Assembly (NCBI GenBank): GCA_963843275.1
Contig: CAWJJM010000012.1
Coordinates: 221,756-285,755, forward strand
From: an uncultured Acidobacteriota bacterium
Lineage (GTDB): Bacteria; Acidobacteriota; Thermoanaerobaculia; Multivoradales; JBCCEF01
Reading direction: 5' to 3'
Length of the DNA: 64,000 nucleotides
The first letter of the stretch is position 1. Every line of letters starts with the position of its first letter. The notes beneath the pieces are model-generated. The model had not been told where the DNA came from and ran no database searches. It worked only from the letters and a program-made list of their open reading frames with translations. This document shows positions 2,086-45,524 of this stretch, in pieces. Made by a program: the position numbers and the translations under genes.

Positions 2086-3646
2086 TCGCCGATCCGATCG
2101 ACGCCGTCGGCCTCGAGATCCTCGAGTGCGTCCGGTGCCGAGGTCCACGTGCTCACCGACGAGGAACGGCCGCGGCTGGCCGAGCTGGTCGGCGGCTTCG
2201 ACGCGCTGGTGGTGCGCGCGGCCACCAAGGTCACCGCGACGATGCTGGCCGAGCCGGGGGCGCTGCGGGTGATCGGCCGGGCCGGCATCGGCGTCGACAA
2301 CGTCGACGTCGCGGCGGCCACCGAGCACGGCATCCTGGTGGTCAACGCCCCGACCGCCAACGTGGTCTCGGCGACCGAGCACACCTTCGCCCTGCTCCTG
2401 GCGCTGGCCCGCCGGGTGCCGGCGGCCGACGCGTCGATGGAGGCGGGCGGGTGGGACCGCAAGAGCTTCGTCGGCACCGAGCTGCACGGCAAGACCCTCG
2501 GGGTCGTCGGCTTCGGCCGCATCGGGCAGCGCGTGGCGGCGCGCGCCCGCGCCTTCGAGATGCACGTGGCGGCCTCCGACCCGTTCCTCGACCCGGCGGT
2601 CGCCCGGCGCGCTCGACGTCGAGCTGCTGCCGCTCGACGAGCTGCTCGCCGCGCGCCGACGTGGTGACGCTGCACACCCCGCTCACCGAGGAGACCCGCA
2701 ACCTGCTCGACGCCCGAGCGGCTGAAGAAGATGAAGCCGGGCGCGCTGCTGGTCAACTGCGGCCGCGGCGGCGTGGTCGACGAGGCGGCGTTGCTGGCGG
2801 CGCTCGAGGCCGGTGAGCTCGGCCGGCGCGGCGCTCGACGTCTACGCCGAGGAGCCGCCGAAGGACTACGCCCTGATGCGCCACCCGCGGGTGGTCGCCA
2901 CGCCGCACATCGGCGCCCAGACCCGCGAGGCCCAGGAGCGCATCGCCACCGAGACGGCGCGCATGGTGCTGGCGGCGCTCGAGGGCTCGCTGGCGGTGAC
3001 CGCGGTCAACCTGCCGTTCGCCTCCACCGGCACCCGCGGCGAGCCGTACCTGGCGCTCGGCGAGCAGGTGGGGCGGCTGGCGGGCTCGCTGCTCGACGGC
3101 GGCCTGCGCAGCGTCGAGGTCGACCTGTGGGGGATCGACGAGGGGCTGCGCCGGCCGCTGTCGGTGGCGGTCCTCAAGGGGGTGCTGACCCCCTTCCTCG
3201 GCGACGCGGTCAACTACGTCAACGCCGAGCGCCTGGCCGAGGCGCGGGGCGTCGAGATGGTGTCCTCGACCCACAGCCGCTCGGCCGACTACCCCCACCT
3301 GGTGGCGGTCCGGGTGACGGCGGAGGAGCGCGTCGAGGTCGCCGGGGCGCTGTTCGGCGAGCGCGACCCGCGGATCGTCCGCTTCGGCGACTTCCGGCTC
3401 GAGTTCCGCCCGCTCGGCTGCCTGCTGGTCCTGCGCAACCGCGACGTCCCCGGGGTGGTGGGGCGGCTGGGGACCCTGCTCGGAGAGGCCGGCGTCAACA
3501 TCGCCGACATCCACCTGTCGCGCCGCGACCAGGAGGCCGAGGCCCTCGCCGTCCTGCGCCTCGACCAACGGCCGCCGGCGGCGACCCTCGAGCGCCTGCG
3601 CGAGCTCCCCGAAGTGCGCTCGGTGCGGGTGCTCGAGCTCGGCTGA
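2069..3646 (+). CDS. serA: D-3-phosphoglycerate dehydrogenase with C-terminal ACT domain; at least 4 frameshifts as assembled
   Basis: (M)YRILIADPIDAVGLEIL...VEVHVLTDEERPRL...GRAGIGVDNVDV...NAPTANVVSATEH...LHGKTLGVVGFGRIGQ... in frames 0/1/1/2; indels at atgg (2069), ~2140, gccc (2703), ~2810; ACT domain ...GVVGRLGTLLGEAGVNIADIHL; stop at 3646. Confidence 0.8.
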
Positions 3647-8266: not shown

Positions 8267-11200
8267 TCAGCCTTCGCCGGCCAACCGGCCGAGCTCGTCG
8301 AGCTCGACGCGGCGCAGGTCCTGCTCGACGGCGGTGGCGTCCTCCGCCGCGGGGTGGGGGCAGACCTTCCAGAAGCGCTTGAGCAGGAAGCCCCAGCGAT
8401 CGAGCACCCAGCTGGCGCGCAGCGAGCCGGTGCGCACCAGGTGGCGCTCGACGAGGCGGCGCAGCAGCATGGCGTCGACGTCGGACGCCACCCGGTCGAC
8501 GCGCACCATCGCCGGGTTGACGCGGTCGGGGAAACCGCCCTCGAGGTCGAGGACGAAGGCGAGGCCGCCGCTCATCCCGGCGCCGAAGTTGCGCCCGGTC
8601 GAGCCCAGGACCACCAGCACGCCGCCGGTCATGTACTCGCAGGCGTGGTCGCCGCAGCCCTCCACCACGGCGCGGGCGCCCGAGTTGCGCACCCCCAGGC
8701 GCTCGCCGGTGCGGCCGGCGGCGTAGAGGCTGCCGCCGGTGGCGCCGTAGAGCACGGTGTTGCCGAGGATCACGTTCTCGTGGCTGGCGAAGCGGGCCTC
8801 GGCCGGCGGCTTGACGATGATCTGCCCGCCGGACATGCCCTTGCCGACGTAGTCCTGCGCCTCGCCCTCGAGGATGAGCTTCATGCCGCGGGTGCAGAAG
8901 GCGCCGAAGCTCTGCCCGGCGGCGCCGCGCAGCTCGAGCTGGAGCAGCCCCTCCGGCAGCCCCGCCTCGCTCCGCGTCTCGGCGATGGCGCCGGCCAGCC
9001 GGGCCCCCACCGAGCGCTCCCGGTTGGTGATCGCGTAGACCTTGCGGAAGGGCCGCGGTCCGCGCACCGACGGCTCGCAGTCGTCGGCCAGGAGCTGGCC
9101 CAGCGGCGGTCCCTCCTCGGGGCGGTCGTTGCGCCGCTGCAGGCGGCGGCGCGGCCGGCGCCGCGCCGGGTCGGGGTCCCACAGCAGTGGCGCCAGCGAC
9201 GGCGGCGCCGCCAGCTGCGCCAGGGCGGCGGGGTCGGGGGCGAGCAGGTCCACGCGCCCGACCACGTCCTCGAAGCGGCTGAAGCCGAGCTCGGCGAGGT
9301 GGTGGCGGACCTCCTCGGCGACGAACAGCATGAAGGCGATCACGTGGTCGGGCTCCCCGGGGAAGCGGGCGCGCAGCTCCGGCTTCTGGCTGGCGATCCC
9401 CACCGGGCAGGTGTTGAGGTGGCACTGCCGGGCCAGGATGCACCCCGCCGCCACCAGGGCCGCGGTGCCGAACCCGACCTCGTCGGCGCCGAGCAGCGCC
9501 GCCACCACCACGTCGCGCCCCGTCTTCAGCCCCCCGTCGACCCGCAGGGTGACCCGGCCGCGCAGGTCGCGTCCCACCAGCACCTGCTGCGCCTCGGCGA
9601 GCCCGAGCTCCCACGGCAGCCCGGCGTGCTTGAGCGACGACAGCGGCGAGGCGCCCGTGCCACCGTCGTGGCCGGCGATCATCACCACGTCGGCGAACCC
9701 CTTGGCGACCCCGGCGGCCACCACCCCGACCCCTGCCTGGGCCACCAGCTTCACCCCCACCCGCGCCGCCGGGTTGACGCTCTTGAGGTCGTAGACGAGC
9801 TGCGCCAGGTCCTCGATCGAGTAGATGTCGTGGTGCGGCGGCGGCGAGATCAGCGAGACGCCGGGCACCGCGTGGCGGATGGCGGCGATCTCGCGGCTCA
9901 CCTTGTGCCCGGGGATCTGGCCGCCCTCGCCGGGCTTGGCGCCCTGCGCCATCTTGATCTCCAGCTCGCGCGCCGCGACCAGGTACTCGGCGGTGACCCC
10001 GAAGCGGGCCGAGGCGACCTGCTTGACGGCGCTGTTGCCCCAGTCGCCGGCCTGCGGCCGCCAGGGGGCGAACCACTCGCGCGGGCCCTCCTCGCCGTAG
10101 GGCGCGAAGCGCTCCCGCGCCTCGCCGCCCTCGCCGGAGTTGCTGCGCGCGCCGAGGCGGTTCATCGCCACGGCCAGGGTCTCGTGGGCCTCGCGCGACA
10201 GGGCGCCGTGGCTCATCGCCTGGGTGCAGAAGCGGCGCGCGATCGCCTCCGCCGGCTCGACCTCTTCGAGCGGCGATCGGCTGGGCGTCGCGGTGCCAGC
10301 GCAGCAGGTCGCGCAGGTTGGCCAGCGGCCGGTCGTCGATGGCGCGCCGGTAGGCTTCCCAGTCGGCGGGCAGGCGGCTGCGCACCGCCCGGTGCAGGGC
10401 CTTGACGGGGGCGGGGCCGAAGGCGTGGAACTCGCCCTGGCGCCGGAAACGGTAGAAGCCGCGGTCGGGGAGGCCCTCGGCGGCGTCCCCGGCGGCGGCG
10501 GCGCGGGCGGCGGCGGCACGGTCGGCGAGCTGCCGGCCGAGGTCGGCGAGGCCCACCGCGCCGAGCCGGTGCTCGGTGCCGTGGAAGTAGCGCTCGACGA
10601 GCTCTGGGGCGAGGCCGAGGGCCTCGAACATCTGCGCCCCCTGGTAGCTGGTCACCGGACCGACGCCCATCCGCGCCATGATCTTGAGCAGGCCGCTCTC
10701 GACCGCCTCGGCGTAGCGGGCCAGCGCCTCGCCCACCGGCTCGGTCCCCGGCGGCGGCGAGCGCGGCGACGGTCCGGTAGGCCAGCCAGGGGTGGACCAG
10801 GGTGGCGCCGAAGCCGATCAGGCAGGCGAAGTCGTGGTCCTCGCACGGCTCGCCGCTGTCGACCACCAGCGACACGCCCATGCGGTGCCCGGTGACGATG
10901 AGGTGCTGGTGCACCGCCGAGGTGGCCAGCAGCATCGGGATCGGCGGGTGGTCGGCGTCGGCGGCGCGGTCGCTCAGCACCAGCAGGGTGGCGCCGTCGC
11001 GGGCCGCCGCCTCGGCGGCCGCGGTCAGCCGGTCGACGGCGCCGGCGAGGTCCGCCGGGTCGGGCGCCAGGGCCGGCAGCTCGGCGCAGCGGAAGGCGGC
11101 GTCGGGGAGCTCGCGCAGCCAGGCGAGCTGGCTGCCGGTGTAGCAGCGGCGAGGCGAAGTGGACCAGGTGGGCGCAGCTCCTCGCTCTCGTCGAGCAGCG

Positions 11201-12857
11201 AGCCCCAGCGGCCGACCATGACACGCAGCGACATCACCGCCCGCTCGCGCAGCGAGTCGATCGGCGGGTTGGTGACCTGGGCGAAGCGCTGCGCGAAGAA
11301 GCGGTAGAGGCCCTGGGGGTGGGGCGACAGCATGGCGAGCGGCGTGTCGTCGCCCATCGAGCCCACCGGGTCTTCCCCTCCAGCGCCATCGGCGCCAGCA
11401 TGCGGTCGACGCTCTCGCGATGGTGGCCGAAGAGCGAGCTGCGCCGCCAGCAGCTCGGGCGCCGCCGGCCGGGGGGCGAAGGACTCGGCGTCGAAGCGCG
11501 CCGGCGGCGGCTCGACGAGCTGCCGCGCCGAGCCAGTCGCGGTAGGGGCGCCGCGCCGCCAACCGCCGCTTGATCGCGTCGCTGGCGCAGGATCTCGCCG
11601 CTCGCGGTGTCGACGCAGAGGATCTCCCCCGGCCCCAGCCGGCCCTTGCTCCAGCACCCGCTCGGGCGGCACGCGCACCAGGCCGGCCTCCGAGGCCAGC
11701 GATCACCCGGCCGTCCTCGACGATCCAGTAGCGCAGCGGGCGCAGGCCGTTGCGGTCGAGCGCGGCGGCGGCGAGCCGGCCGTCGGAGAAGACCAGCGCG
11801 GCCGGGCCGTCCCAGGGCTCGAGCAGGTCGAGTGGTAGTCGTAGAAGGCGGTCACCTCCGGCGCCATGTCGCGCGCCCCCTCGAACGCCTCGGGCACCAG
11901 CATCAGGGCGGCGTGGAGCGGGTCGCGGCCCGAGCGCACCAGCAGCTCGAAGAGGTTGTCGAGCATCCCCGAGTCGCTGGAGGCGTCGTCGAGCACCGGC
12001 AGGAGCTCGGCGAGCTCCTCGCCCCACACCTGCGAGGTGAGGTCGCGCTCGCGGGCCCGCATCCAGTGGCGGTTGCCGAGCAGGGTGTTGATCTCGCCGT
12101 TGTGGGCGAGCAGGCGGAAGGGCTGCGCCAGCTCCCAGGCGGGGGCGGTGTTGGTGCTGTAGCGCTGGTGGAAGACGGCGATCGCGGTCTCGTAGCGGGG
12201 ATCGGCCAGGTCGGCGTAGAAGCGGTCGAGCTGCGCCGCGATCATCATCCCCTTGTAGACCACGGTGCGGTGCGACAGCGAGGCGACGTGGAGGCGCACG
12301 CCCTCCACCCCCCGCAGCGCCGCCTCCATGCGGCGGCGGGCGAGGAACAGGCGACGCTCGAAGTGCTCGTCGCTCCACGCCGGGTCGCGCGCCAGCAGCA
12401 GGTGGAGCACCTCGGGGCGGCCCGCCGCCGCCACCTCGCCGAGCGCCTCGACGTCGACCGGCACCGGGCGCCATCCGAACACCCGCAGGCCGGTGCGCTC
12501 GGCCTGGCCGACCAGCGCCTCGAGGGCCGCCTCGCGCGCCCCGGCGTCCTCGCTCCACAGGAAGAGGGCGCCGAGCGCTAGGTCGCCGTCGGGCGAGGGC
12601 GTCGACGCCGCGAGCGGCCAGCTCGTCGCGCAGCAGCGGCGTAGGGGATCTGGGTGAGGCACGCCGGCGCCGTCGCCGCTCAGCCGGTCGGCGCTGACCG
12701 CGCCGCGGTGGCTGAGGTGGGAGAGCGCGCGCAGCGCCAGGCGCAGCGTCTCCGCACTGCGCCGGCCGCGGGCGTCGGCGACGAAGCCGATGCCGCAGCC
12801 GTCCCGCTCGTGGGCGGGTCGGTGGAGGCCCGGCGGCCTCCTGCTGGAGCTCTCCAT
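8267..12857 (-). CDS. gltB: Glutamate synthase large subunit (NADPH-GOGAT alpha); at least 3 frameshifts as assembled
   Basis: N-terminal amidotransferase ...[15 protein letters not shown]...; central ...[39 protein letters not shown]...; FMN/Fe-S ...[15 protein letters not shown]...[18 protein letters not shown]...[13 protein letters not shown]; GXGXG domain ...[11 protein letters not shown]...; pieces in ORFs 11703-12857, 10213-12939 and 8267-10519 (different frames). Confidence 0.85.
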
Positions 12858-12975
12858 CGGGGTCCGACCGCCACCGCGGCGGGGTCGGGAAGGACGTCGC
12901 GGGGCGTGCGACGGATCCTACCATGCCGCAGCGCGGCACGAGCGGAGCGGTCGCCGCCCGCCGCGGCGCGCGGGG

Positions 12976-13386: not shown

Positions 13387-13517
13387 CCGACCATTGTAGT
13401 GCGCTCGTGCGACCCTCCGGGTATTGCGCGGCGTCCGGACCTGCTGTATAACCCGCCGATCCGAGCAGCCGTCGCGAGCCGGGAAGGCGGGGTGCTGCCG
13501 TTGACCTTCTGAGGGAG

Positions 13518-16500
13518 GTGCGGTCGGTGGTTCGATCCTGGCGAGCGGCCCCGTGCGGCCTGTACGTGGCTCTCTTCGCGGTCGTCGTCTGCGGCGCCGC
13601 GTCGCCCGCCCACGCCGTCCAGAACCAGGTCCGCATCCTCGTCGACGCGGACGCCGAGCCGGCGACCGGCTGCACCGTGCCGACGCCGGAAGGCCCGTTC
13701 GACGGGGTCGAGTGGATCCTCACCACCACGATCGAGACCGTCGCGGTGCCGTCGCCGTCGGCCACCGTCACCGAGGTGACGAAGCAGGCCTGCGTCGACG
13801 CTTCCAGCGACACCTTCGGCCCGCCGGTGGTCGTCGACCCGGGCGACTGGCCGGTCGGGGTCGACCTCGGGCTCGACGCCTTCGACGTCGTCGAGACCTA
13901 CCTGCCGCTCTCCGACCTGCCCGCGAACGGGCTGCGGATCCGCGTCGCCGTGGTGAGCGACGACGGACAGGTTTCGCGGGCGCTGCTCGAGACCTCGCCG
14001 CGGAGCGGCCAGGACATCTTCGTCGCCATCCGCTCGATCCTGGAGATTCCTGCGCTGGGCGGTCCCGGGCTGGTGGCGTTGGCGGCGTTGCTGGCGCTGG
14101 CCGCCGCGGCGCGGTTGCGCCGCCGACCGCGGGCGGCGCTGCTGGTGGTCGCGGCGCTGCTCGGCGCCACCGGGGTGGCGTGGGCGGCCTGCGTCCTCGA
14201 CGGCGATCCGGGCGACTGGGCGCCGGGTCAGGAGATCGCCGACAACCCGCCGGCGAGCTGCCCGGGCGGCGGCGCCGAGATCCGCGCCGTCTTCGCCCAG
14301 ACGGACCCGGGGCACGTGTGCTTCCGGGTGGACACCTGCCTGCGCTTCAACACCCCGCCGGTGGCCGACCCACAGAGCGTCTCGACGCCGGAGGACACCC
14401 CCCTCGGGATCACGCTCACCGGCTCGGACGCCGACAGCGACCCGCTGACCTTCTCGATCGTCCCGGCGACCGGCCCGTCCCACGGCGGCCTCACCGGCAC
14501 GCCGCCCGACGTCACCTACACCCCGGCGGCGAACTACCACGGTCCGGACGGGTTCGACTTCCGGGTGGACGACGGCCACGGCGGCACCGGCACGGCGACC
14601 GTGTCGATCACGGTGACGCCGGTCAACGACCCGCCGGTGGCCGACGCGGACGGCTACACGGTGGACGAGGGAGCGACGCTCAACGTCACGGCCCCGGGCG
14701 TGCTCGGCGGCGACGACGACGTCGACGGCGACCCGTTGACCGCCGTGCTGGTCGCCGGCCCGTCCCACGCCGCGTCGTTCACCCTCCACGCCGACGGTTC
14801 GTTCGACTACACCCACGACGGCTCGGAGACGACGAGCGACACGTTCACCTACGAGGCGAACGACGGCGCGCTGGACTCGAACGTGGCGACGGTGACGATC
14901 ACGGTGAACGCGGTCAACGACGCCCCGGTGGCGGTCGACGACACCTACGCGGTGGACGAAGGCGGGGTGCTGAACGTCTCGGCGCCCGGGCGTGCTCGCC
15001 AACGACACCGACGCCGAGGGCGCCAGCCTGACCGCGGCCCTGGTCAGCGGCCCGGCGCACGCGTCGTCGTTCACGCTCAACGCCGACGGCTCGTTCAGCT
15101 ACACGCACGACGGCTCGGAGACACGTCGCGACACCTTCACCTACAAGGCGAACGACGGCGCCCTCGACTCGAACGTCGCCACCGTGTCGATCACGATCAA
15201 CCCGATCAACGACCCGCCGGTGGCGGACGACGACGCCTACACCGTCGACGAGGGCGGGACGGTGAGCGACGTGGCGCCGGGGCGTGCTGGCCGGCGACAC
15301 CGACGCCGAGGGCCAGCCGCTGCAGGCCCTGCTGTTCACCGGTCCGTCGCACGCGGCGGCCTTCACCCTCAACACCGACGGCTCGTTCAGCTACACCCAC
15401 GACGGCAGCGAGACGCCGCTCAGCGACTCGTTCAGCTACCGGGCGAACGACGGTGCGCTCGATTCGAACGTGGCGACGGTGACGATCACCGTCACGCCGG
15501 TCGACGACCCGCCGGTGCTCGACCTCGACGCCGACGACTCCGGCGGTACCGGCGGAGCCGACTACGCCGTCACCTTCACCGAGGGCGACGCGCGGACGCT
15601 GCTCGAGGACGCCGCCGACGCCACGATCTCCGACGCCGACTCGGCGACGCTCGCCACGCTGACGGTGACGCTGACCAACCTGCTCGACGCCGGTTCCGAG
15701 GTGCTCGACGTCGACCTCACCGGGGCCGACGCGGCCTTCTCGAAGGACTACGACACGACGACCGACCCCGCGAAGGGCGTGCTGACGGTCACGGCGTCGC
15801 CGGCGCGGCCGCTGGCCGAGTGGGTGGCCCTGCTGCGCAAGGTGACCTACGTCGACTCCGACCAGGATCCCGACGCCACGGCGCGGGTGGTCACCTTCGT
15901 GGCGAACGACGGCTCGGAGGACGGCAACACGGCGACGTCGACGGTGACGGTGGTGCCGGTCGACGACGCCCCGGTGGCCGACGCCGACGCCTACACGGTG
16001 GACGAGGGGGGCACCCTGAACGTCTCGGCGCCGGGCGTGCTCGACGGCGACACCGACGCCGAGGGCGGCAGCCTGACCGCGGCTCTGGTGAGCGGCCCGT
16101 CGCACGCCTAGTCGTTCACGCTCAACGCCGACGGCTCGTTCAGCTACACCCACGACGGCTCGGAGACGACTTCGGACTCGTTCACCTACAAGGCGAACGA
16201 CGGCTCGCTGGACTCGAACACGGCGACGGTGTCGATCACGGTGAACGCGGTCAACGACGCCCCGGTGGCGGTCGACGACACCTACGCGGTGGACGAGGGT
16301 GGGGTGCTGAACGTCTCGGCGCCCGGGCTGCTCGGCAACGACACCGACGCGGAGGGCGGCAGCCTGACCGCGGCTCTGGTGAGCGGCCCGTCGCACGCGT
16401 CGTCGTTCACGCTCAACGCCGACGGCTCGTTCAGCTACACCCACGACGGCTCGGAGACGACCGCGGACGCGTTCACCTACAAGGCCAACGACGGCTCGCT

Positions 16501-19500
16501 CGACTCGAACACGGCGACGGTCTCGATCACCGTCAACCCGGTCGACGACCCGCCGGTCGCGGTGGCCGACACGGCACAGATCTTCGAGGACCCGGGCTCG
16601 CCGACGGCGCTCGACGTGCTGGCCAACGACAGCGACGTCGACGGCGGGCCGAAGCAGGTCGTCTCCGCCACCGATCCGGCGAACGGCACGGTGGCGCTGA
16701 CCCCGGCCGGCCCCGGCCCCTACAGCGGGCTGACCTACCTGCCGGACGCCAACTACTGCAACAGCCCGGCCGGTCCGTCGGCGACCCCGGACACCTTCAG
16801 CTACACCCTGAACGGCGGTTCGTCGGCGCTGGTCAGCGTCACCGTGATCTGCGTCAACGACCCGCCGGTCGCCGGCACCGACGCCTTCGACTTCGTCGGC
16901 AACACCGAGCTGCGCGTCGATCTCGCCGCGGCGGCGACGCCTGCCGCCCTGGAGACGACCGGTTCGGGCAGCGGCGTCCTCGACAACGACAGCGACCCGG
17001 TGGAGGGCGACCCGCTGTCGATCGTCGGCCTCCACGTCGGTGCCTGCATCGACAACAGCGCGCCCTTCGACTGCACCGACGCCGCGGTGGGCCGGGTGCA
17101 GCTCGGCAGCGACGGCAGCTTCAGCTTCCTGCCGGCCGCGGGCGACGGCGACGCCAGCGAGAGCTTCCAGTACACGCTCTCCGACGGCACCGACACGACG
17201 ACGGGAACGGTGAACCTGACCCGTGTGGCCCGCGTCTGGTACGTCAAGAACGACGCCGCGGGCGGCGGCACCGGCACCTCGGCCTCGCCGTTCGACACCA
17301 TCACCGCGGCGAACCTGTCAGATGACGACGGCGACGGCGACCTCACCGACGACCTCGACTCGGCCGGCGACTGGATCTTCGTCTACTACGGCGACGGCAC
17401 CTCGAACGGTCAGTCCACCGGCCTCGTGCTCGAGGGCGGCCAGCACCTGATCGGCGAGCACGTCGGCCTGTCGCTGCCGGTGAACCTCAACGGCAACGGC
17501 TCGCCGACCGTTCTGGTGGCGGCCGCCCCGGGCAACCGGCCGCGGCTCGACGACACGGTGGCCGACGGCTTCGACGGGGTCGAGGCGCACGACGTCGTGC
17601 CGGCCGAGGTCGCCGGCATGAACCTGGCCGGCAACATCAACGGGCTCGACTGGACGACCACCGCCGCCTTCGCCGGCGCCGGCACCTTCGCCGTCCACGA
17701 CAACGTGGTGCGCTCGGCCGGCGTCGAGGGCGTCGACGTCAACCTGGCGGGGAGCGGCAACACCGTCCTCTCGTTCCACGACAACGCCCTGACCGCGACC
17801 GGCACCGCCCTCGACGTCCAGGAGACCGGCAGCGGGGCCCTGACGATCAGCGCCTTCGACGACAACACGGTCGGCGGCAACACCGGCGGCTCGGGCCTGG
17901 TCGTCAACGGCGCCACGTTCGACGCGGTCCCCGGCGGCGGCATCGACACGGTCCTCGGCGGCACGACGGCGATCGGCGCCTCCGGCAACGGCGTCGGCCA
18001 GGCCGGCCTGATGCTCTCCAACGTCCAGGGCGACCTGCACTTCGCCAACCTGTCGGTCTACGCCGACTCGGGCGCGGGCCTCGGCGTCACCGGGACCGGC
18101 GCCGGCATGACCTTCCGGGTCAACTCCGGCGGCGGCGCGACCGGCGTCGTCCAGGCGATCAACGGGCCGGCGGTGTCGGCGAGCGCCGTGGCGTTCGACC
18201 TGCGGCTGTCCGACATGGACAGCACCAACAGCACGAGCCAGGGCGTGTCGCTGACCAACGTCACCGGCACCTTCTCGGCCGAGTCCGGCAGCGCGATCAC
18301 CAACGCCACCGGGACCGACTTCCTGATCAGCGGCGGCACCGCCAACGTCACCTACAAGGGCGCGATCACCGACGACGTCGGCCAGCTCGTCGCGGTCTCC
18401 GGCGCCACCGCCGGTACCAAGAGCTTCGAGGGGGCCATCACCGACGGCGACGACGGCGACGGCAGCGGCGTGTCGTTGTCCAGCAACACGGGCGCGACGG
18501 TGCGCTTCTCGGGCGGCCTGGTGCTGTCGACGGGTGCCAACCCGGCCTTCGCGGCGACCGGCGGCGGCACGGTGGAGATCTGCGACGAGACCCCCTGCAA
18601 CCCCGCCGCGACGGGCCTCGCCGTCAACAAGATCACCACCACGACCGGGACGGCGCTGAACGTGGCGAACACCAACATCGGCGCCAACAACCTCGAGCTG
18701 CGCAGCGTCTCGGCGGGCACGGCGGGGAGTGGGCCCACCAACGGCATCGTGCTCAACACCACCGGGTCGGGGGGCGGCCTGAAGGTCAAGGGCAACGGCT
18801 CGGCGGGCTCGGGCGGCACGATCCAGAAGACGACCAGCGACGCGATCGCGCTGACCAGCACGCAGCACGTCGCCCTGTCGTCGATGAACGTGCAGAACAG
18901 CGCCGAGAGCGGCATCCTCGGCTCCTCGGTCACGGATCTCGACCTCACCGGCTGTAGCTTCACCAACAACGGAGACGACTCGGCGGACGTCGGCGTCAAG
19001 GTCACGAACCTCGCCGGCTCGGCGACGTTCAGCGGCACCTCGATCACCGGCTCGGCGCTGGCCAACGTGTTCATCGACAACACCGCGGCGGCCTTGAGCT
19101 CGTTCACCATCTCGGGCGGCAGCTACGGCAGCCTGGGAACGGCGTTCGGCGGCAACTCGATCCTGCTCAACATCCGCGGCACGTCGACTCTGACCACCGG
19201 CAGTGTCAGCGGCATCACGGTGGCGAACAACAAGCCGGCCCGCGGCATCACCGTGCAGGCGCAGGACACGGCCACCATCTCCGACTTCACGGTGCAGACC
19301 AGCACCTTCACCAACAACGGCCTGCAGGCGAGCTTTGAGCAGTCGGGGTCGGCCAACCTGTCCTTCAAGCTGCTCAACAACCCGACGATGACGATGACGT
19401 TGCCGGCGGCGGGCACCAGCCATGCGGTCAACGTGTCGAGCTCGTCGACCTCGACGGGGGGCACCATCCAGGGCCGCATCCAGGGCAATACCATCGGCAA

Positions 19501-20011
19501 CGCCGCGGTGGCGAGCTCCGGCTCGCCGATCGGCAACGGCATCCGTGTCCTGGTCCAGGGCCGCACCACCGCCACGCTGCTCATCGACGGCAACACCATC
19601 CGCCAGGTGCCGCAGGCGCGCGGCATCGACGTCCAGTTCCTCGGGCCGCTCTCCTCGGGGCAGCCGCTGTCGCAGAGCGACGTCACGGTCACCGGCAACG
19701 ACGTCAACCCGCAGGATTCGACGGGCTTCCCGACCGCCGCCATCTACCTGGCGGCGGACAGCCAGGGCGGCTCACCGGTTCGCATGCGCTCCGACGTGCG
19801 CAGCAACACCGTGCCGGCCGGCGCCGCCTTCGACGCGCTACCGACGTACCTGATCGTCGACGAGGTCGCGGCGGCGGCGGAGGCGCAGCTCGTCGACACC
19901 GCGCCGGCGAGCGCGAGCTGCACCGCGCAACTGACCAGCACCAACACCGGCAGCGCCTCGGCGGCGGCCGGCTGCGCCCTGATCGCGGGCCCGATCAACA
20001 CGCCCCCCTAG
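13518..20011 (+). CDS. Giant (~2160 aa) secreted repeat protein/adhesin: at least 9 tandem ~95-aa cadherin/Ig-like (VCBS, tandem-95 type) repeats plus ~900-aa Gly/Thr/Ser/Asn-rich beta-helix-like C-terminal region; 2 frameshifts and 1 in-frame TAG as assembled
   Basis: Repeats of form VNDAPVAVDDTYAVDEGGVLNVSAPG..DTDAEGGSLTAALVSGPSHASSFTLNADGSFSYTHDGSETT.DTFTYKANDGSLDSNTATVSITV; frame 0 to ~14990, frame 1 to ~15285, frame 2 to 20011; TAG at 16109-16111; first ~200 aa may be a separate fused ORF (see findings). Confidence 0.75.
14340..16860 (+). repeat. Intragenic tandem repeat array (~285-bp period, several copies about 90% identical at DNA level) inside giant adhesin gene
   Basis: e.g. 14893-15185 and 16232-16525 are near-identical (gtgaacgcggtcaacgacgccccggtggcggtcgacgacacctacgcggtggacga...). 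Confidence 0.8.
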
Positions 20012-20059: not shown

Positions 20060-20563
20060 ATGGCGGAACCTTTCCTCAGTGAGATCCGACTGATGGGCTT
20101 CGGCTTCCCACCGAAGGGCTGGGCGCTGTGCGACGGGCAGCTTCTCCCGATCAACCAGAACCAGGCGTTGTTCTCGCTGCTGGGGACGACCTTCGGCGGC
20201 GACGGGCGGGTCAACTTCGCGCTCCCCGACCTGCGCGCCCGGGTCCCGATCCACGTCGGCGGTGGGCACACCCTGGGCGAGCGCGGTGGCGAGCAGGGGC
20301 ACACCCTGAGCCTCGCGGAGATGCCCACCCACACCCACGTGCTCCAGGCGACGTCGAGCGACGGCACCCAGGTGATCGCCGCGGGAGCCCTGCTGGCGCG
20401 CGCGGCGCCTGCCAACCCCTATTCGGCCCCGACGAACCTGGCGGCGATGCAGGCCGCCTCGGTCGCCAACAACGGCGGCAGCCAGGCGCACCTCAACCTG
20501 CAGCCGCTCCTGACCCTCAGCTTCTGCATCGCCCTGCAGGGCATTTTCCCGAGCCCGACCTGA
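20060..20563 (+). CDS. Phage tail-collar domain protein (MdpB/COG4675-like), paralogue 1 of 3
   Basis: MAEPFLSEIRLMGFGFPPKGWALCDGQLLPINQNQALFSLLGTTFGGDGRVNFALPDLRARVP...HTHVL = Collar (PF07484-like) signature; C-terminus ...LNLQPLLTLSFCIALQGIFPSPT; GGAGG RBS. Confidence 0.85.
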   Translation: MAEPFLSEIRLMGFGFPPKGWALCDGQLLPINQNQALFSLLGTTFGGDGRVNFALPDLRARVPIHVGGGHTLGERGGEQGHTLSLAEMPTHTHVLQATSSDGTQVIAAGALLARAAPANPYSAPTNLAAMQAASVANNGGSQAHLNLQPLLTLSFCIALQGIFPSPT

Positions 20564-20572
20564 GGAACGACG

Positions 20573-21073
20573 ATGGCCCAACCCTACGTCGGGGAGATTC
20601 GCATCTTCGGCGGTAACTTCGCGCCCGCGGGGTGGATGTTCTGCGAAGGGCAGCTGTTGCCGATCTCGGAGAACGAGACGTTGTTCCAGCTCATCGGAAC
20701 GACCTACGGCGGAGACGGACAGGACACCTTCGGGCTCCCGGATCTGCGGGGCCGATTGCCGGTCCACCAGGGCAACGGCTTCGTTCTCGCGCAGGCCGAC
20801 GGCGCGGAGGAGGTCACCCTGACCGTGAGCCAGATCCCGTCCCACGCACACCCCCTGCTCGCGGCCAACGCCGTCGGGAACGATCCCAACCCCCAGGGCA
20901 ATCTGCTCGCCGAGAGCTCCGCGGTGTCGATGTACCAGAGCGGTGCGGCGAACGCCGCGATGGCGACGTCGATCGCCGCGGTGGGCGGCAGCCAGCCGCA
21001 CACCAACTTCCAGCCCTATCTCTGCCTGAACTTCATCATCTCTTTGTTCGGCATCTTCCCCAGCCCGACCTAG
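20573..21073 (+). CDS. Phage tail-collar domain protein, paralogue 2 of 3
   Basis: MAQPYVGEIRIFGGNFAPAGWMFCEGQLLPISENETLFQLIGTTYGGDG...LPDLRGRLP...PSHAHPL; C-terminus ...NFQPYLCLNFIISLFGIFPSPT; 9-bp spacer from paralogue 1. Confidence 0.85.
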   Translation: MAQPYVGEIRIFGGNFAPAGWMFCEGQLLPISENETLFQLIGTTYGGDGQDTFGLPDLRGRLPVHQGNGFVLAQADGAEEVTLTVSQIPSHAHPLLAANAVGNDPNPQGNLLAESSAVSMYQSGAANAAMATSIAAVGGSQPHTNFQPYLCLNFIISLFGIFPSPT

Positions 21074-21080
21074 GAGCGAC

Positions 21081-21608
21081 ATGGCCGACCCCTTCGTCGC
21101 CGAGATCCGCATCTTCCCCTTCAACTTCGCACCCAAGGGCTGGGCCTTCTGCGACGGCCAGCTCCTGCCGCTGTCGCAGAACACCGCGCTGTTCTCGCTG
21201 CTCGGGACCACGTACGGTGGCAACGGCAAGTCGAACTTCGCGCTGCCGGATCTTCAGGGCCGGGCGCCGATGCACCCTGGCCAGGGCCCGGGTCTCTCGC
21301 TGCACGACCTCGGCGAGACCGGCGGGTCGGAGACGGTGACCCTTCTCGAGTCCGAGACGCCCGCTCACGGGCACACGCTGCAGTCCAACGGCGCGCCCGC
21401 GAACCGGACCACTCCGGTGGGCAACTCCATCGCCCGGGTCTCCGGTGCGACGCCCTACTCCGACGGCGCCGCGAACCCGCCGAGGGTGCCGATGTCCGAC
21501 CAGGCCCTCGCCCCCGCGGGCGGCGACCAGCCGCACAACAACATGATGCCCTTCCTGACCCTCAACTTCTGTATCGCCCTGCAGGGCGTCTTTCCGCCGC
21601 GCACCTGA
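21081..21608 (+). CDS. Phage tail-collar domain protein, paralogue 3 of 3
   Basis: MADPFVAEIRIFPFNFAPKGWAFCDGQLLPLSQNTALFSLLGTTYGGNGKSNFALPDLQGRAP...PAHGHTL; C-terminus ...NMMPFLTLNFCIALQGVFPPRT; 7-bp spacer from paralogue 2. Confidence 0.85.
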   Translation: MADPFVAEIRIFPFNFAPKGWAFCDGQLLPLSQNTALFSLLGTTYGGNGKSNFALPDLQGRAPMHPGQGPGLSLHDLGETGGSETVTLLESETPAHGHTLQSNGAPANRTTPVGNSIARVSGATPYSDGAANPPRVPMSDQALAPAGGDQPHNNMMPFLTLNFCIALQGVFPPRT

Positions 21609-22510: not shown

Positions 22511-22640
22511 CTACCAGCCGCCTCCTCCGCCGCCGCCGGACGACCCGCCGCCCCCGCCGCCGCCGCCGCCGGACGAGCCGCCGGAGGAGCTCGAGGCGGC
22601 GGAGACGCCCGCCGCCATGCCGCCGATCGCCGCGGTCCAC
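22511..22640 (-). repeat. GC-rich simple-sequence tract (ccgccgccg / ggacga... repeats) encoding the Gly/Ser tail of the DUF2207 protein
   Basis: ccagccgcctcctccgccgccgccggacgacccgccgcccccgccgccgccgccgccggacgagccgccggaggagc... read directly. Confidence 0.7.
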
Positions 22641-24505
22641 GATCCCGAGGCTCCGCCGCCGCCGAACGCCCCGCCGCCGCCGGTCCAGCCGCTGCTCCCG
22701 GAGGTCAGCGCCCCGCCGCCGGTCGTGGCCTCGGCCAGGCCGCCGCCGGCCGCCGCGACGCCCCAGCGGCGCGACCAGCGCGCCACCCTGCCGCCGAGGC
22801 CGAAGGCGAGCAGATAGGGAAGCCAGGCGTCGTCGAGCGCGGGGCGCTCGCGCCCGAGCTCGGCGCGCAGCCAACGGCGCGCCAGGTGGAGGCGACCGCG
22901 CAGGCGCAGCATCTCCGCCGTCTCGCGGCTCGCGGCGTGGTGCAGGAAGCTCGACAGGACGACCAGCGGCGCGAGCAGGCAGGCCGCGATCCCGAACGGT
23001 CCGAGGTGCGGATAGCCGTCCCCCGGCCACCAGTGGTCGTGCCCGGCGACGGCGACCGCGGCGGCGGCCAGCGCCGCCCAGGGCAGGAGGAAGCCGAGCG
23101 CCGCCGGCCCGAGGTGGCGCATCCGGTGACGCCAGCGGGCCGCGCTCCCGGCGCCGAGCAGGAGGCTCAGCAGGAATCCGGCGACGAGGAGCAGGGCGAG
23201 GACGATCGCCTGGCCGGCGCCCCGCGTGGCCCCCTCGCCGACCAGGCAGGCCAGACAGGCCGTGAAGAGGAGCAACGTCCGCCGCGCCCGTGGCTTCGCG
23301 GTCTCGGCGGCGAGCCCGCGGCGGCCCCCGAGGCGCTTCTCGATGCCCTTGCGGACGATGTCGACCGGGGAGAAGCCGCGGGAGCGGTAGTGGCGGCGGA
23401 CGGCGGCGGTGTCGGTCACCCGCCGGTCACCGAAGAAGAGCTTGTCGATCAGGGTGCGCTCGTAGCCGGTGAGCTCGCCCCGCGGCACCTCGAGCTCGAG
23501 CTCGAGCTCGGGGGAGCCGAACCACCAGCGCGGCGGCTTGACGGTGCTCGCCAGCTTGCCCTCGGCGACCAGCCGGGCGAGCAGCGCCGCCACCTCGGCG
23601 GAGCCGACCTCGCGGTCCCACAGGGCCCCGAGCTGCTCGGCCGGCAGCGCCAGCACGGTGCTCTCGATCCAGGCGCGGTCGGGGTGGGAGGGCAGCTCGG
23701 GGTCGCGGCGGAAGCGGCCGAGCGCCGCCTCGCGGCGGACGAAATCGGCGGCCAGCAGCGCGGCGGCGGCTGCGGCGGCGGCGAGCAGCGCGAAGAGCAC
23801 GCTGCGGCGGACGGCGCGCAGGGTGGCGCCGGGAACGCCGTCGCCGACGTGGTCGAGGTCGACGGTCACCACCTCGGTGGCGCCGGGGGGCAGCGGGCCG
23901 CCCTCGCGGTGCAGGTGGCCCGCGCCGTCGAACAGTGGATTGCGCGGCGGCGGTCGCCAGGCGGGATCGAGGTCGAGGTCGAGGACGAAGCGCTCGATGG
24001 CGCCGTCGCGGTCGGGGAAGGCGAAGTCGTGGTCGAGGCGGTAGAGACCCGGCCGCCCCGCGTGCTGGGTGAGCACCCCGGTGAGCCGGTAGGCCAGCAG
24101 GTAGGTGATCTCGGTCCCGTCGAAGGGCGGGTCGTCGGGCGCCCGGCTGCGCCAGCGCAGGGTGGTCGAATCGCTCCAGTCGTAGTGGTCGACGCTGTCG
24201 AGATCGCCCGCCACCAGCGGCAGCTCGGCGCCCGTCGCCGCGTCGAGGCGCGCCACCCGGTCGAGCGCGAGATGCTGGCCCATGGCGACGCGGAAGCGGC
24301 GCTCGCCGCCGTTCCAGTCGCCGGTGAACACGATCGCCTGGCGCTCCTCCACGTGCAGAGCGCCGTCGGCGTCGAGGCGGGCGTGCACCGCGAGCTCGCG
24401 CCAGTGGAGCTCCCGCTCCTGGGCGGCGGACGGCGGGGCGAGGGCGAGCGCCGCGAGCGCCAGGAGCCCGGCACCGCCGAGGAACCGGTTCGGCTTCGTT
24501 GCCAT
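22511..24505 (-). CDS. DUF2207-family membrane protein with N-terminal signal peptide and Gly/Ser-rich C-terminal tail ending in Trp
   Basis: Start MATKPNRFLGGAGLLALAALALAPPSAAQ; extracellular domain; several TM helices (LLLFTACLACLVGEG..., IVLALLLVAGFLLSLLLGAG...); tail ...GGGGASGSWTAAIGG...SSGGGGGGGGGSSGGGGGGGW typical of DUF2207. Confidence 0.7.
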   Translation of the reverse strand: MATKPNRFLGGAGLLALAALALAPPSAAQERELHWRELAVHARLDADGALHVEERQAIVFTGDWNGGERRFRVAMGQHLALDRVARLDAATGAELPLVAGDLDSVDHYDWSDSTTLRWRSRAPDDPPFDGTEITYLLAYRLTGVLTQHAGRPGLYRLDHDFAFPDRDGAIERFVLDLDLDPAWRPPPRNPLFDGAGHLHREGGPLPPGATEVVTVDLDHVGDGVPGATLRAVRRSVLFALLAAAAAAAALLAADFVRREAALGRFRRDPELPSHPDRAWIESTVLALPAEQLGALWDREVGSAEVAALLARLVAEGKLASTVKPPRWWFGSPELELELEVPRGELTGYERTLIDKLFFGDRRVTDTAAVRRHYRSRGFSPVDIVRKGIEKRLGGRRGLAAETAKPRARRTLLLFTACLACLVGEGATRGAGQAIVLALLLVAGFLLSLLLGAGSAARWRHRMRHLGPAALGFLLPWAALAAAAVAVAGHDHWWPGDGYPHLGPFGIAACLLAPLVVLSSFLHHAASRETAEMLRLRGRLHLARRWLRAELGRERPALDDAWLPYLLAFGLGGRVARWSRRWGVAAAGGGLAEATTGGGALTSGSSGWTGGGGAFGGGGASGSWTAAIGGMAAGVSAASSSSGGSSGGGGGGGGGSSGGGGGGGW

Positions 24506-24605
24506 CGATCTCCTTCCGCGTCGGGGAGGGGAGACTCTACACCCTGCGGCCGTCTGCGATCGGACGGCGCGCCGGGGGGCGCCGACCGCGTCGGCGGGGA
24601 GCTCC

Positions 24606-24899
24606 CTAGGTGAAGACCGCCTCGTAGGTCGTGCCGTCGTCGTCGCGGGCGACCGGGACCAGGAAGAGGTCCAGGACCCCCATCTCGGTGTTCTCCAGGC
24701 GGTAGATCCGCTGCGGGAGCAGCGGCTCGCGCGGGCCGTGGAAGTGGAGCGAGAACTGCTCGCGCGCCGCGCGGCCCTGCAGCCCGGTGCTGCGGACGTC
24801 CGCCAGCTCGAGGTCGATCTCACCCGACGCCGCGCCGGCGAGGCGGAAGGCCTCGCCCCGCCGCGGCAGGAACGAGTCCTTGGTCAGCTTGTCCAGCAT
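24606..24899 (-). CDS. Hypothetical protein (97 aa)
   Basis: MLDKLTKDSFLPRRGEAFRLAGAASGEIDLELADVRSTGLQGRAAREQFSLHFHGPREPLLPQRIYRLENTEMGVLDLFLVPVARDDDGTTYEAVFT; GC3-rich codon usage; no recognisable domain. Confidence 0.4.
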   Translation of the reverse strand: MLDKLTKDSFLPRRGEAFRLAGAASGEIDLELADVRSTGLQGRAAREQFSLHFHGPREPLLPQRIYRLENTEMGVLDLFLVPVARDDDGTTYEAVFT

Positions 24900-28694: not shown

Positions 28695-29416
28695 GGCGGG
28701 TCCGCCGGGCGGCGGCCGCCCTGCTCGCCGCGTCGCTCGCCGGCGCCGGCGCCGCGCCGCTGGCGGCCGCCCCGGCCGACCCGTACCGGGAGCAGCGCCA
28801 GGAGATGGTCGAGCAACAGGTCCGGGGGCGGGGGATCGACGACCCGGCCGTCCTGGCGGCGATGGCCGAGGTGCCACGGCACCTCTTCGTCGCCGAGGCC
28901 GACGTCGCCACCGCCTACGCCGACCGCGCCGTCGCCATCGGCTACGGCCAGACCGTCTCGCAGCCCTACGTGGTGGCGCTGATGACCTCGCTGCTCGGCC
29001 TCGACCACGACGACCGGGTGCTGGAGATCGGCACCGGTTCGGGCTACCACACGGCGGTGCTGTCGCGGGTCGCCGGCCGCGTCTACTCGATGGAGATCAT
29101 CGAGCCGATGGCCCGCCAGGCGCAGCGGCGGCTCGCCTCGCTGGGCTACGACAACGTCGAGATCCGGGTCGGCGACGGCTACAAGGGCTGGCCCGAGGAG
29201 GCGCCGTTCGACGCCATCATCCTCACCGCCGCGCCGCCGCGGATCCCCCAGCCGCTGATCGACCAGCTCAAGGTGGGCGGGCGCATGGTGGTGCCGGTCG
29301 GCGGCTACATCCAGGATCTGCAGGTGATCGACAAGACGGCGGACGGACTGCAGAAGCGCACCGTCATCCCGGTGCGGCTGCAGCCGATGACCGGGCAGGT
29401 GCGGGAGGGCGGATGA
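28691..29416 (+). CDS. pcm: Protein-L-isoaspartate O-methyltransferase with N-terminal signal peptide (copy 1)
   Basis: MRRVRRAAAALLAASLAGAGAAPLAAAPA then ...AMAEVPRHLFV...AIGYGQTVSQPYVVALMT...VLEIGTGSGYHTAVLS...GDGYKGWPEEAPFDAIILTAA; ATG overlaps upstream stop (ATGA). Confidence 0.9.
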   Translation: MRRVRRAAAALLAASLAGAGAAPLAAAPADPYREQRQEMVEQQVRGRGIDDPAVLAAMAEVPRHLFVAEADVATAYADRAVAIGYGQTVSQPYVVALMTSLLGLDHDDRVLEIGTGSGYHTAVLSRVAGRVYSMEIIEPMARQAQRRLASLGYDNVEIRVGDGYKGWPEEAPFDAIILTAAPPRIPQPLIDQLKVGGRMVVPVGGYIQDLQVIDKTADGLQKRTVIPVRLQPMTGQVREGG

Positions 29417-30213
29417 GGCTGCCGGCCGCCGGAGCGCTGGCGGTCGTCGCGCTGGCCGTTCCGCTGGCCGCCTGCCCCGGCCGCTCGCCGGCCGCGCCGC
29501 CGGGCCCCGGCGCCGGCTTCGCCGACCAGCGTCAGGCCATGGTCGACGTGCTGCGCTCGGCCGCGATCCGCGACCCGCGGGTGCTGGAGGCGATGGCCGA
29601 GGTCCCCCGCCACCGCTTCGTGCCGCCGCCGTGGCAGGGCGCCGCGTACCGCGACGAGCCGCTGCCCATCGGCCACGGCCAGACGATCTCCCAGCCCTAC
29701 GTGGTCGCCCTGATGTCGTCGCTGGCCGACCTCCACGGCGGCGACAAGGTGCTGGAGATCGGCACCGGCTCGGGCTACCACGCCGCGGTGCTGTCGCGCC
29801 TCGCCGGCCGCGTCTACTCGATCGAGATCGTGCCAGCGCTCGCCGACCGGGCGCGCCGCACCCTCGCCGAGCTGGGCTACCGCAACGTCGAGGTGCGCCG
29901 CGGCGACGGCTACAGGGGGTGGCCGGAGGCGGCGCCGTTCGACGCCATCGTGCTGACCGCGGCGCCGCGACACATCCCGCCGCCGCTGCTCGCCCAGCTC
30001 GCCGTGGGCGGACGGCTGGTCGCCCCCGTGGGCGGCCGCGAGCAGGAGCTCACGCTGATCACCCGCACCCCGGCGGGCTACCGGCGCGAGTCGATCACCC
30101 CCGTGCGCTTCGTCCCCATGACGGGGGAGGCGGACCGGGAGCCCGGGTCGGAGCCCGGCCCCGGCTCCGACCCCGGCCGAGCCGCCGATCCTGGCGGCCG
30201 TGCACCCGGTTGA
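29413..30213 (+). CDS. pcm: Protein-L-isoaspartate O-methyltransferase with lipoprotein-like signal peptide (copy 2)
   Basis: MRLPAAGALAVVALAVPLAAC...; ...AMAEVPRHRFVP...PIGHGQTISQPYVVALMS...VLEIGTGSGYHAAVLS...GDGYRGWPEAAPFDAIVLTAA; start overlaps pcm-1 stop (ATGA). Confidence 0.9.
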   Translation: MRLPAAGALAVVALAVPLAACPGRSPAAPPGPGAGFADQRQAMVDVLRSAAIRDPRVLEAMAEVPRHRFVPPPWQGAAYRDEPLPIGHGQTISQPYVVALMSSLADLHGGDKVLEIGTGSGYHAAVLSRLAGRVYSIEIVPALADRARRTLAELGYRNVEVRRGDGYRGWPEAAPFDAIVLTAAPRHIPPPLLAQLAVGGRLVAPVGGREQELTLITRTPAGYRRESITPVRFVPMTGEADREPGSEPGPGSDPGRAADPGGRAPG

Positions 30214-30248
30214 GCGGCCGGCCGCGCGCCCGACCGCGAGGAGCCGCG

Positions 30249-33686: not shown

Positions 33687-33829
33687 GCTCGGTTCCTCGC
33701 GGGAAGGTCGGAGGACGGCCCCCGGGCGGCGCAGTGTAGCACCCGCGCGGCCGCCGGCAGCCACCGCCGCTGACGTAGACTCGGCCGACGACCGCGGGGC
33801 GCGGCGCGCCGCGCCCGGTGGAGGTCCCG

Positions 33830-43678: not shown

Positions 43679-43684
43679 GGTCCC

Positions 43685-45451: not shown

Positions 45452-45524
45452 CGGGGGTCCTTTGGTCGGGTCTCTTCCTCCAACCCGCGCCGCCGGTGGA
45501 AAACTCCGCGCCGGCTCCCGGACC

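Follow-up and report, generated by a model that had tools for sequence, protein, structure and literature searches.

Sorting signals of the exosortase, archaeosortase and rhombosortase type are defined as C-terminal, and in bacteria their mechanism is largely untested. The locus described here raises the question whether such a signal can also stand close to the beginning of a very long protein, followed in the same reading frame by a giant adhesin. It lies in a stretch of 64,000 nucleotides from an uncultured Acidobacteriota bacterium of the Thermoanaerobaculia (contig CAWJJM010000012.1, positions 221,756 to 285,755; hereafter the window, G+C about 75%). A preliminary description of this DNA had favoured the explanation that two genes, one for a secreted protein of about 200 residues with a sorting tail and one for the adhesin, are fused here through a lost stop codon, and had named a real but unusual internal sorting or anchoring module as the alternative. 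Comparison with orthologous loci revealed a single continuous gene, and it was the alternative that found support. The reading preferred here, with a probability of about 0.6, is that the product is one precursor, the N-terminal 280 or so residues of which form a conserved biogenesis module with an internal signal of the exosortase H type and a re-entrant, cleavable signal.

One reading frame across the hairpin

Residue numbers are counted throughout from the GTG at 13518 on the plus strand. The open reading frame (ORF) that opens there terminates at 15482 and has 654 codons. The GTG at 13527 is the likely true start; it is favoured because a GGGAGG lies 9 nt before it and because a public gene call (P0002, 651 aa) begins there, i.e., at residue 4 of the 654-aa ORF. 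The elements of the module were found exactly where they had been described. Residues 1-33 (MRSVVRSWRAAPCGLYVALFAVVVCGAASPAHA) are a signal peptide with the end AHA↓VQ, and the -1 column is Ala in 74% of the family alignment. Residues 172-204 (RSILEIPALGGPGLVALAALLALAAAARLRRRP) contain the short motif, the hydrophobic helix and the Arg cluster, in the order IPALGGPG, then LVALAALLALAAAA, then RLRRR. They are followed by a second segment that resembles a signal peptide (residues 205-225, with a hydrophobic helix at 205-223 and the end AWA↓AC). All parts of a Sec-type signal, together with a predicted site for signal peptidase I, are present in it, i.e., RRRPR as n-region, a hydrophobic h-region and AWA↓A. 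Motif, helices and basic turn are called the hairpin in the following.

Seven orthologous loci from independent assemblies, i.e., Illumina k141 contigs and long-read contigs of metagenome-assembled genomes (MAGs), were compared with the window. A word-indexed search with residues 1-279 revealed the relative P0001 on an Illumina (k141) metagenome contig, which is 54% identical, runs through the hairpin in a single frame (...VLEIPTLGEWGLLLLALVLASAAVVRLRRRPAVAVLVGLLLLGVTGTAWAACVLDGDPSDW...) and aligns to the hairpin of the window free of gaps. The 62 hairpin codons were also compared with those of P0001, the closest orthologue, and 22 were identical, 19 had synonymous and 21 non-synonymous differences, while indels were absent (0). 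The arrangement was identical at five further loci from GTDB species genomes (two Thermoanaerobaculia, one Acidobacteriota and two Gammaproteobacteria-labelled MAGs) and again at the seventh locus, L007. At the four loci whose contigs hold the whole gene, the ORFs were unbroken and comprised 1905-2326 aa. The orthologues carry IPTLGEWG, and in all of them, as in the window, where the IPTL-type signal occupies residues 177-203, about 1950 residues follow downstream in frame. A two-gene arrangement was therefore seen at none of the loci, and a single continuous frame at all seven.

A TTG near 14117 had been proposed as the start of a separate adhesin gene. An in-frame TTG is indeed present at 14115-14117, as the codon of residue L200. 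At six of the seven orthologous loci the equivalent Leu codon is CTG, CTC or CTT (CTG in P0001), and TTG was found only in the window and in L006; furthermore, no Shine-Dalgarno-like site is present within 20 nt upstream of the basic cluster at any of the eight loci. Because the orthologous frames are continuous and the TTG is neither conserved nor preceded by a Shine-Dalgarno-like site, the two-gene and the internal-start explanations were both rejected. The gene is continuous across the hairpin, and this is not an artefact of the assembly, as hundreds of related proteins have the same module at their N-terminus.

A family with an internal IPTL-type motif

The module belongs to a large family. 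A phmmer search with residues 1-279 against 1.84 billion cluster representatives (clusters at 50% identity) yielded 511 clusters at E<=1e-3, and with a limit of E<=1e-10 the number was 345. In the best 150 of the 511, the match nearly always comprised query residues of about 17-278 and lay at the extreme N-terminus of the target, and the targets were up to 3163 aa long. With a crude regular expression, the pattern of motif, helix, basic cluster and helix was found in 116 of these 150, at positions of about 132-214 with one outlier at 379. Conservation was quantified with a MAFFT alignment of 148 cluster representatives (Table 1), in which the hairpin columns are filled in at least 145 sequences, except at residues 205-206 of the variable loop and at position 179 of the motif. 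The two Cys residues of the N-domain likely form a C52-C92 disulfide, consistent with an exported domain. The source names seen for family members were "hypothetical protein" or blank only, and when the best-scoring relative was used as query for proteins named 'midcut-by-XrtH', none of the eight matches carried any name.

The long members of the family have no second membrane element. A hydrophobic C-terminal tail was detected in only one of 55 representatives of at least 1500 aa, and the adhesin of the window (last residues ...GCALIAGPINTPP) also lacks a C-terminal membrane helix; the N-terminal hairpin is the sole membrane element in long members. The passenger of the window consists of cadherin-like repeats, for which the models NF012211, PF17803, PF17963 and PF17892 were used (tand_rpt_95, NF012211, 116.4 bits versus a cut-off of 90; Big_9, E 1e-38; Cadherin_4, E 1.5e-38), and its C-terminal region had no Pfam or NCBIfam match besides these repeats. 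The module also occurs with another passenger. In P0034, a protein of 408 aa encoded on a 514-kb contig, the N-domain, the IPTL hairpin and the LDGxxxDW segment precede an OmpA/Pal peptidoglycan-binding domain, which argues that the module is a portable leader and is not bound to adhesin repeats.

As an additional observation, many full-length members (P0004-P0147) end with ...G(G/A)xC(P/A)x(P)P, e.g., GGAACPTP or GTCPQP, and the end of the window protein is encoded at 19964-20008 (+). Possible roles of this shared ending are those of a conserved cap and of an export signal.

Comparison with profile hidden Markov models (HMMs) of sorting signals indicated that the IPTL-type motif of the window is more than a chance resemblance. 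The predicted IPTL-CTERM likeness held for the isolated segment of 41 aa, which scored 21.0 bits with TIGR04174 (IPTL_CTERM; cut-off 20.5, E 3e-4), but it did not hold in longer context or with the corresponding Pfam model, as detailed below. The suggested GlyGly-CTERM and PEP-CTERM models gave no match at E<=10, and other sorting models were weak on the window (MYXO-CTERM 10.7 bits, cut-off 20; GC_trans_RRR 10.2 bits). The relatives scored higher. When 50 members were scanned against NCBIfam, IPTL_CTERM matched 25 at E<=0.01, and seven relatives scanned singly reached 26-37 bits versus the cut-off of 20.5 despite the internal position of the motif. No other IPTL-type tail was found in the six frames of the window or in any frame of the orthologous loci.

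The second model of importance was NF033207, 'midcut-by-XrtH' (midcut_by_XrtH), which describes an IPTL-like signal in the middle of a protein, followed by a further hydrophobic segment; the same layout is present here. It matched 38 of the 50 scanned members, with P0031 as the best (54.1 bits, above the cut-off of 45, profile positions 29-103) and others at 19-44 bits; the matches in relatives extended at most over profile positions 14-108 of 175. On the window the match comprised residues 176-224 and profile positions 36-90, i.e., the motif and both helices. Helix 1 falls within the IPTL_CTERM as well as the midcut_by_XrtH matches, and profile positions 64-90 align to helix 2.

Predicted structure, proposed processing and competing explanations

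An AlphaFold2 model of window residues 4-301, based on an alignment of 50 sequences, had a mean predicted local distance difference test score (pLDDT) of 87.4 and a predicted template modelling score of 0.81. It consists of a beta domain, a hairpin of two helices (model residues 179-197 and 201-215) and three strands after the hairpin (236-239, 252-260 and 263-270), which have a pLDDT of 94-96 in the full model. Covariation was calculated as mutual information with average product correction (MI-APC) from 148 sequences, about 123 of them effective. Of the 40 strongest pairs, nine connect the N-domain with the segment after the hairpin, among them 145-258 (rank 3), 147-256, 167-241, 154-243, 154-254, 122-256 and 123-252, and the pairs 145-258 and 147-256 correspond to an antiparallel ladder on predicted strands. 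Among the same 40 pairs, one links the N-domain with the hairpin and none links the hairpin with the following segment. Model and covariation suggest that the hairpin interrupts a single beta-sandwich, composed of the N-domain and about 55 residues after the hairpin.

The residues C225 and C268 (14190-14192 and 14319-14321) also covary (MI-APC rank 4), and each of the two occurs in no more than about 14-20% of the members; this suggests a subfamily-specific disulfide just past the predicted signal peptidase site. No relative of the N-domain was found in Pfam, NCBIfam or PDB, and a sequence profile search of PDB with the module returned only cadherin/RTX repeat noise. A likeness to CBM9/glucodextranase domains was considered and dropped, as a circularly permuted domain from seven members, in which the post-hairpin segment was put ahead of the N-domain, had no Pfam match.

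The following route of biogenesis is proposed for the precursor. The Sec signal peptide would send out the N-domain of about 140 aa, the IPTL-type recognition motif would come to lie at the outer face of the membrane, and helix 1 would act as stop-transfer sequence, with the Arg cluster kept in the cytoplasm. Helix 2 would then re-enter the membrane from the inside to the outside like an internal signal peptide, so that export of the adhesin of about 1900 aa could resume, and its conserved AxA end would be offered to signal peptidase I, which may cut after AWA. The IPTL motif would be the site of cleavage or transfer by an enzyme of the exosortase H class (XrtH), and two cuts of this kind would follow the 'midcut' idea expressed in the name of NF033207. 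One hairpin would thus serve both parts of the precursor, the first as its sorting tail and the second as its signal peptide. The prediction of this topology is based on the positive-inside rule and on the likeness of both helices to signals, and both cleavages, like the enzymes assigned to them, are likewise putative. XrtH is the candidate for the IPTL motif on the basis of the likeness to IPTL-CTERM and of the name and profile of NF033207; according to the TIGRFAMs/NCBIfam descriptions, XrtH (exosortase H) is the cognate enzyme of IPTL-CTERM. As one beta-sandwich appears to be built from the N-domain and the 55 or so residues after the hairpin, both products could stay associated after cleavage.

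Several results weigh against such a processed precursor. The motif of the window, IPALGGPG, is degenerate and lacks T, E and W of the consensus. The IPTL_CTERM score dropped below the cut-off in context, to 16.9 bits in 204 aa and 6.9 bits in 654 aa, and Pfam PF18203 (IPTL) reached 17.3 bits versus a cut-off of 20.8. NF033207 scored 23.2-26.0 bits, below its cut-off of 45, and covered about a third of the 175-position profile. The split domain rests on one AlphaFold2 model and on covariation from about 123 effective sequences, from which the packing was read; the post-hairpin segment modelled alone by AlphaFold2 had a pLDDT of 86, a value that does not discriminate whether it depends on the N-domain. 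An exosortase gene was found neither in the scanned ORFs, which cover most of the 64-kb window apart from a few stretches, nor within at most 10 kb on either side of the orthologous loci L004-L007. For L004, L005 and L006, multi-transmembrane ORFs and the genes flanking the adhesin were compared with NCBIfam, and for L007 precomputed Pfam matches were used. A neighbourhood with XrtH, which would be expected from the name of NF033207 alone, was thus seen neither in the window nor at L004-L007. To our knowledge, there is no experimental evidence for the cleavage of any IPTL-type signal. In the literature that was searched, IPTL-CTERM was encountered once, as a C-terminal domain at residues 285-312 of a Methylomirabilis S-layer protein (PMC8671808).

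The strongest competing explanation is that the hairpin is a permanent two-helix anchor in the inner membrane, placed in a loop of an extracytoplasmic domain and never cut. The likeness to IPTL-CTERM would then come from common ancestry or from convergence under helix-capping constraints, and not from processing by an exosortase. It would fit the missing exosortase in the scanned ORFs of the window and in the flanks of the orthologues, the degenerate motif of the window with its scores at or below the cut-offs, and the fact that the adhesins have no other anchor. Nevertheless, it is regarded as rather unlikely. A permanent anchor would need neither I/V-P-T-L at 98/99/63/82% nor A-x-A at 83/93% (positions -3/-1), and so strong a conservation of the two short motifs speaks for the recognition of each by an enzyme. 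In addition, relatives score 6-16 bits above the curated IPTL_CTERM cut-off, and an adhesin of about 2000 aa on the inner membrane of a diderm cell presumably could not reach the cell surface. The absence of an exosortase gene nearby is not unusual, because exosortase substrates are typically scattered around the genome, and the enzyme stays putative.

A more specific version of the processed precursor is that of a two-chain domain. The precursor would be cut at the IPTL motif by an XrtH-class enzyme and at AWA↓A by signal peptidase, the N-terminal fragment would be transferred to an acceptor in the envelope, and the adhesin would hang on it non-covalently by its first 55 or so residues. This version is put forward tentatively and, taken as a whole, is doubtful.

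Next, the gene could be a true pseudogene in this organism, with a module that is a relic here and functional in relatives. An intact ORF of 2160 aa, as assumed in the preliminary description, does not exist in the window; the 654-aa ORF is followed by further coding sequence that is interrupted by two frameshifts and a TAG. A frame plot of the G+C content at third codon positions (GC3) revealed +1 jumps of the coding frame at about 14990 and 15280, and both are 1-bp homopolymer expansions (CC to CCC and GGG to GGGG) within the repeated motif APG-VL. When the C at about 14987 and the G at about 15279 are dropped and the TAG is read as a sense codon, a protein of 2160 aa results, which is collinear with the intact ORF of the orthologue L002. 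Three disruptions within 1.1 kb, one of them a substitution (TCG to TAG) and not a homopolymer indel, together with the degenerate IPTL motif, would suit a pseudogene. However, homopolymer length changes such as the two indels are typical of long-read consensus errors, and the contig of the window has 2.04 Mb, a size that suggests a long-read MAG. GC3 is 0.95-1.0 over the full length of the gene, without a sign of decay. Moreover, the essential genes gltB, serA and kup of the same window are also divided between reading frames, which indicates that single-base indel errors are frequent in this assembly. Because these genes are broken likewise and because of the size of the contig, the downstream frameshifts and the TAG are most likely consensus errors of the assembly and not signs of pseudogenisation, and a true pseudogene appears quite improbable.

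Translation could also start internally, at the TTG at 14115 or at a nearby GTG, so that helix 2 would be the adhesin's own signal peptide. The in-frame TTG stands right before the Arg cluster, and helix 2 by itself resembles a complete signal peptide, from the basic n-region to AWA↓A. Against this stand the CTG, CTC or CTT codons at six of the seven loci, the lack of Shine-Dalgarno-like sites at all eight, and the covariation between the N-domain and the post-hairpin segment, which argues that the two parts function together; an internal start is thus very improbable. The least probable explanation, that a gene for an IPTL-CTERM-tailed protein of about 200 aa and a giant adhesin gene were joined in the assembly by stop loss or an indel, could invoke the indel errors in the adhesin repeats, gltB, serA and kup and the textbook signal peptide that would begin at the TTG, but it is hardly compatible with seven independent loci, including Illumina assemblies at 42-54% identity, that keep the same frame without an indel, with the alignment of nearly all of the best 150 of 511 representatives over the junction, with alternative frames that are both free of stop codons over the 120 codons read from where the hairpin begins, or with a TTG that is unconserved and lacks a Shine-Dalgarno-like site.

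Features of the locus, known systems and implications

The features of the adhesin gene and of its surroundings are summarized in Table 1.

Table 1. Features of the adhesin locus and selected genes of the window, with conservation values from the family alignment.
Feature	Position	Strand	Residues	Description	Conservation
Shine-Dalgarno-like GGGAGG	13512-13517	+		9 nt before GTG 13527; read from sequence	
N-terminal Sec signal peptide	13527-13616	+	4-33	End AHA↓VQ; AlphaFold2 helix at model residues 10-23	
N-domain	13617-14033	+	34-172	All-beta; near-invariant Cys pair C52/C92; AlphaFold2 pLDDT 92-98	C52 100%, C92 99%; D43, D45, G51, G63, W111 and E126 also conserved
IPTL-type motif IPALGGPG	14046-14069	+	177-184	Family consensus IPTL(S/G)EWG	I/V177 98%, P178 99%, T179 63%, L180 82%, W183 45%, G184 53%
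Transmembrane helix 1, LVALAALLALAAAARL	14070-14117	+	185-200	Predicted outside-to-inside; AlphaFold2 helix at model residues 179-197	
Basic cluster RLRRRPR	14112-14132	+	199-205	Predicted short cytoplasmic turn; includes in-frame TTG 14115-14117	R201 77%, R202 76%
Transmembrane helix 2 / internal signal-peptide-like segment	14133-14186	+	206-223	AWA end; predicted signal peptidase I cut after 14186; AlphaFold2 helix at model residues 201-215	A/V at -3 83%, W at -2 67%, A at -1 93%, A at +1 70%
Post-hairpin segment, LDGxxxDW ... FRxD	14187-14360	+	224-281	Opens ACVLDGDPGDW; predicted remainder of the N-domain beta-sandwich	D228 93%, G229 98%, D233 83%, W234 98%, R270 95%, D272 95%
Adhesin passenger	14361-20011	+		Cadherin-like / Big_9 / tandem-95 repeats, then repeat-rich C-terminal region; Pfam and NCBIfam matches	
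Frameshift 1	14982-14990	+		GCGCCCGGG, one surplus C (~14987), versus GCGCCGGGC in the intact repeat at 16028	
Frameshift 2	15274-15282	+		GCGCCGGGG, one surplus G (~15279)	
In-frame TAG	16109-16111	+		Sister (paralogous) repeats carry TCG (Ser)	
Three tandem Phage-Tail-Collar-domain paralogues	20060-20563, 20573-21073, 21081-21608	+		About 170 aa each; PF07484, E 3e-28	
gltB (glutamate synthase), split	8270-12939	-		At least three pieces	
serA, split	2086-3643	+		Two pieces	
kup, split	61125-63090	-		Profile positions 291-622 in one ORF	

The upstream neighbour of the adhesin gene lies on the opposite strand and codes for a small cytochrome c. The three Phage-Tail-Collar paralogues directly after the adhesin gene were also present in L002 (7894-8022), L004 (15908-17473), L005 (15655-17229) and L006 (15928-17492), and they were absent from L007. 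Further downstream in the window, a DUF2207-like membrane protein is encoded (22514-24883, -), the final 60 or so residues of which are almost all Gly and Ser (...GGGGGGGGSSGGGGGGGW). In addition, the window contains two genes for M48-family metallopeptidases (33779-35194, +, and 43688-46066, -), one of them with TPR repeats. No Pfam match was found for the ORFs of 702 aa (32007-34112, -), 864 aa (29391-31985, +) and 312 aa (42749-43684, -).

The module of the window resembles two known systems most closely. With IPTL-CTERM (TIGR04174 / PF18203) it shares the I-P-T-L-x-x-W-G motif, the hydrophobic helix and the Arg cluster, but IPTL-CTERM is defined at the extreme C-terminus, whereas here the signal occupies residues 177-203 of about 2160 aa and passes straight into a second helix. 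With NF033207 it shares the internal IPTL-like signal and the second hydrophobic helix, but the N-domain of about 140 aa and the giant adhesin passenger lie outside that model, and an XrtH gene does not adjoin in the window. As its NF033207 score is below the cut-off and its match takes in only a third of the profile, the window protein is not filed as a member. The module would thus work like IPTL-CTERM and like NF033207, and it falls under the definition of neither. No published description of NF033207 was found in the literature.

The PEP-CTERM/exosortase, PGF-CTERM/archaeosortase A and GlyGly-CTERM/rhombosortase systems are also alike in Sec export, in the helix with a basic tail and in the action of an enzyme at a short motif; their signals, in contrast to that of the window, are terminal and not internal. 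For the archaeosortase and rhombosortase systems, it is established that a dedicated membrane enzyme removes or exchanges the helix. The alternation of stop-transfer and re-initiating helices, with cuts by signal peptidase and several products per ORF, recalls viral polyproteins, e.g., those of flaviviruses, and a repeat adhesin that would be attached to the cell through its N-terminus, and not through its C-terminus, recalls the N-terminal retention module in giant adhesins of the LapA type. Neither has a sequence or fold relationship to the window protein, and LapA depends on type I secretion and on the LapG protease and not on Sec with an exosortase-type motif.

An XrtH signal in the middle of a protein already exists as the name of an NCBIfam model. 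What appears to be new is the N-domain of about 140 aa, the apparent split sandwich, the giant-adhesin or OmpA passengers and the size of the family. With at least 345 clusters at E<=1e-10, a large uncharacterised family combines an IPTL-type signal near residue 175 with a re-entrant helix that is predicted to be cleavable and a passenger of about 2000 aa. For annotation pipelines as well as human readers it is tempting to divide such genes in two or to label them as chimeric, and the comparative evidence shows that this would be wrong. If the precursor is processed as proposed, exosortases accept internal sites, one ORF gives rise to two exported products through one dual-purpose hairpin, and the family would offer a natural substrate for testing XrtH, with the release of a 15-kDa fragment as an easy read-out. 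If the two-chain version is also true, it would represent a previously undescribed 'split-domain' mode of N-terminal anchoring of Sec-exported giant adhesins, with exosortases acting on internal sites, and among the loci identified it would occur in MAGs of Acidobacteriota and Gammaproteobacteria.

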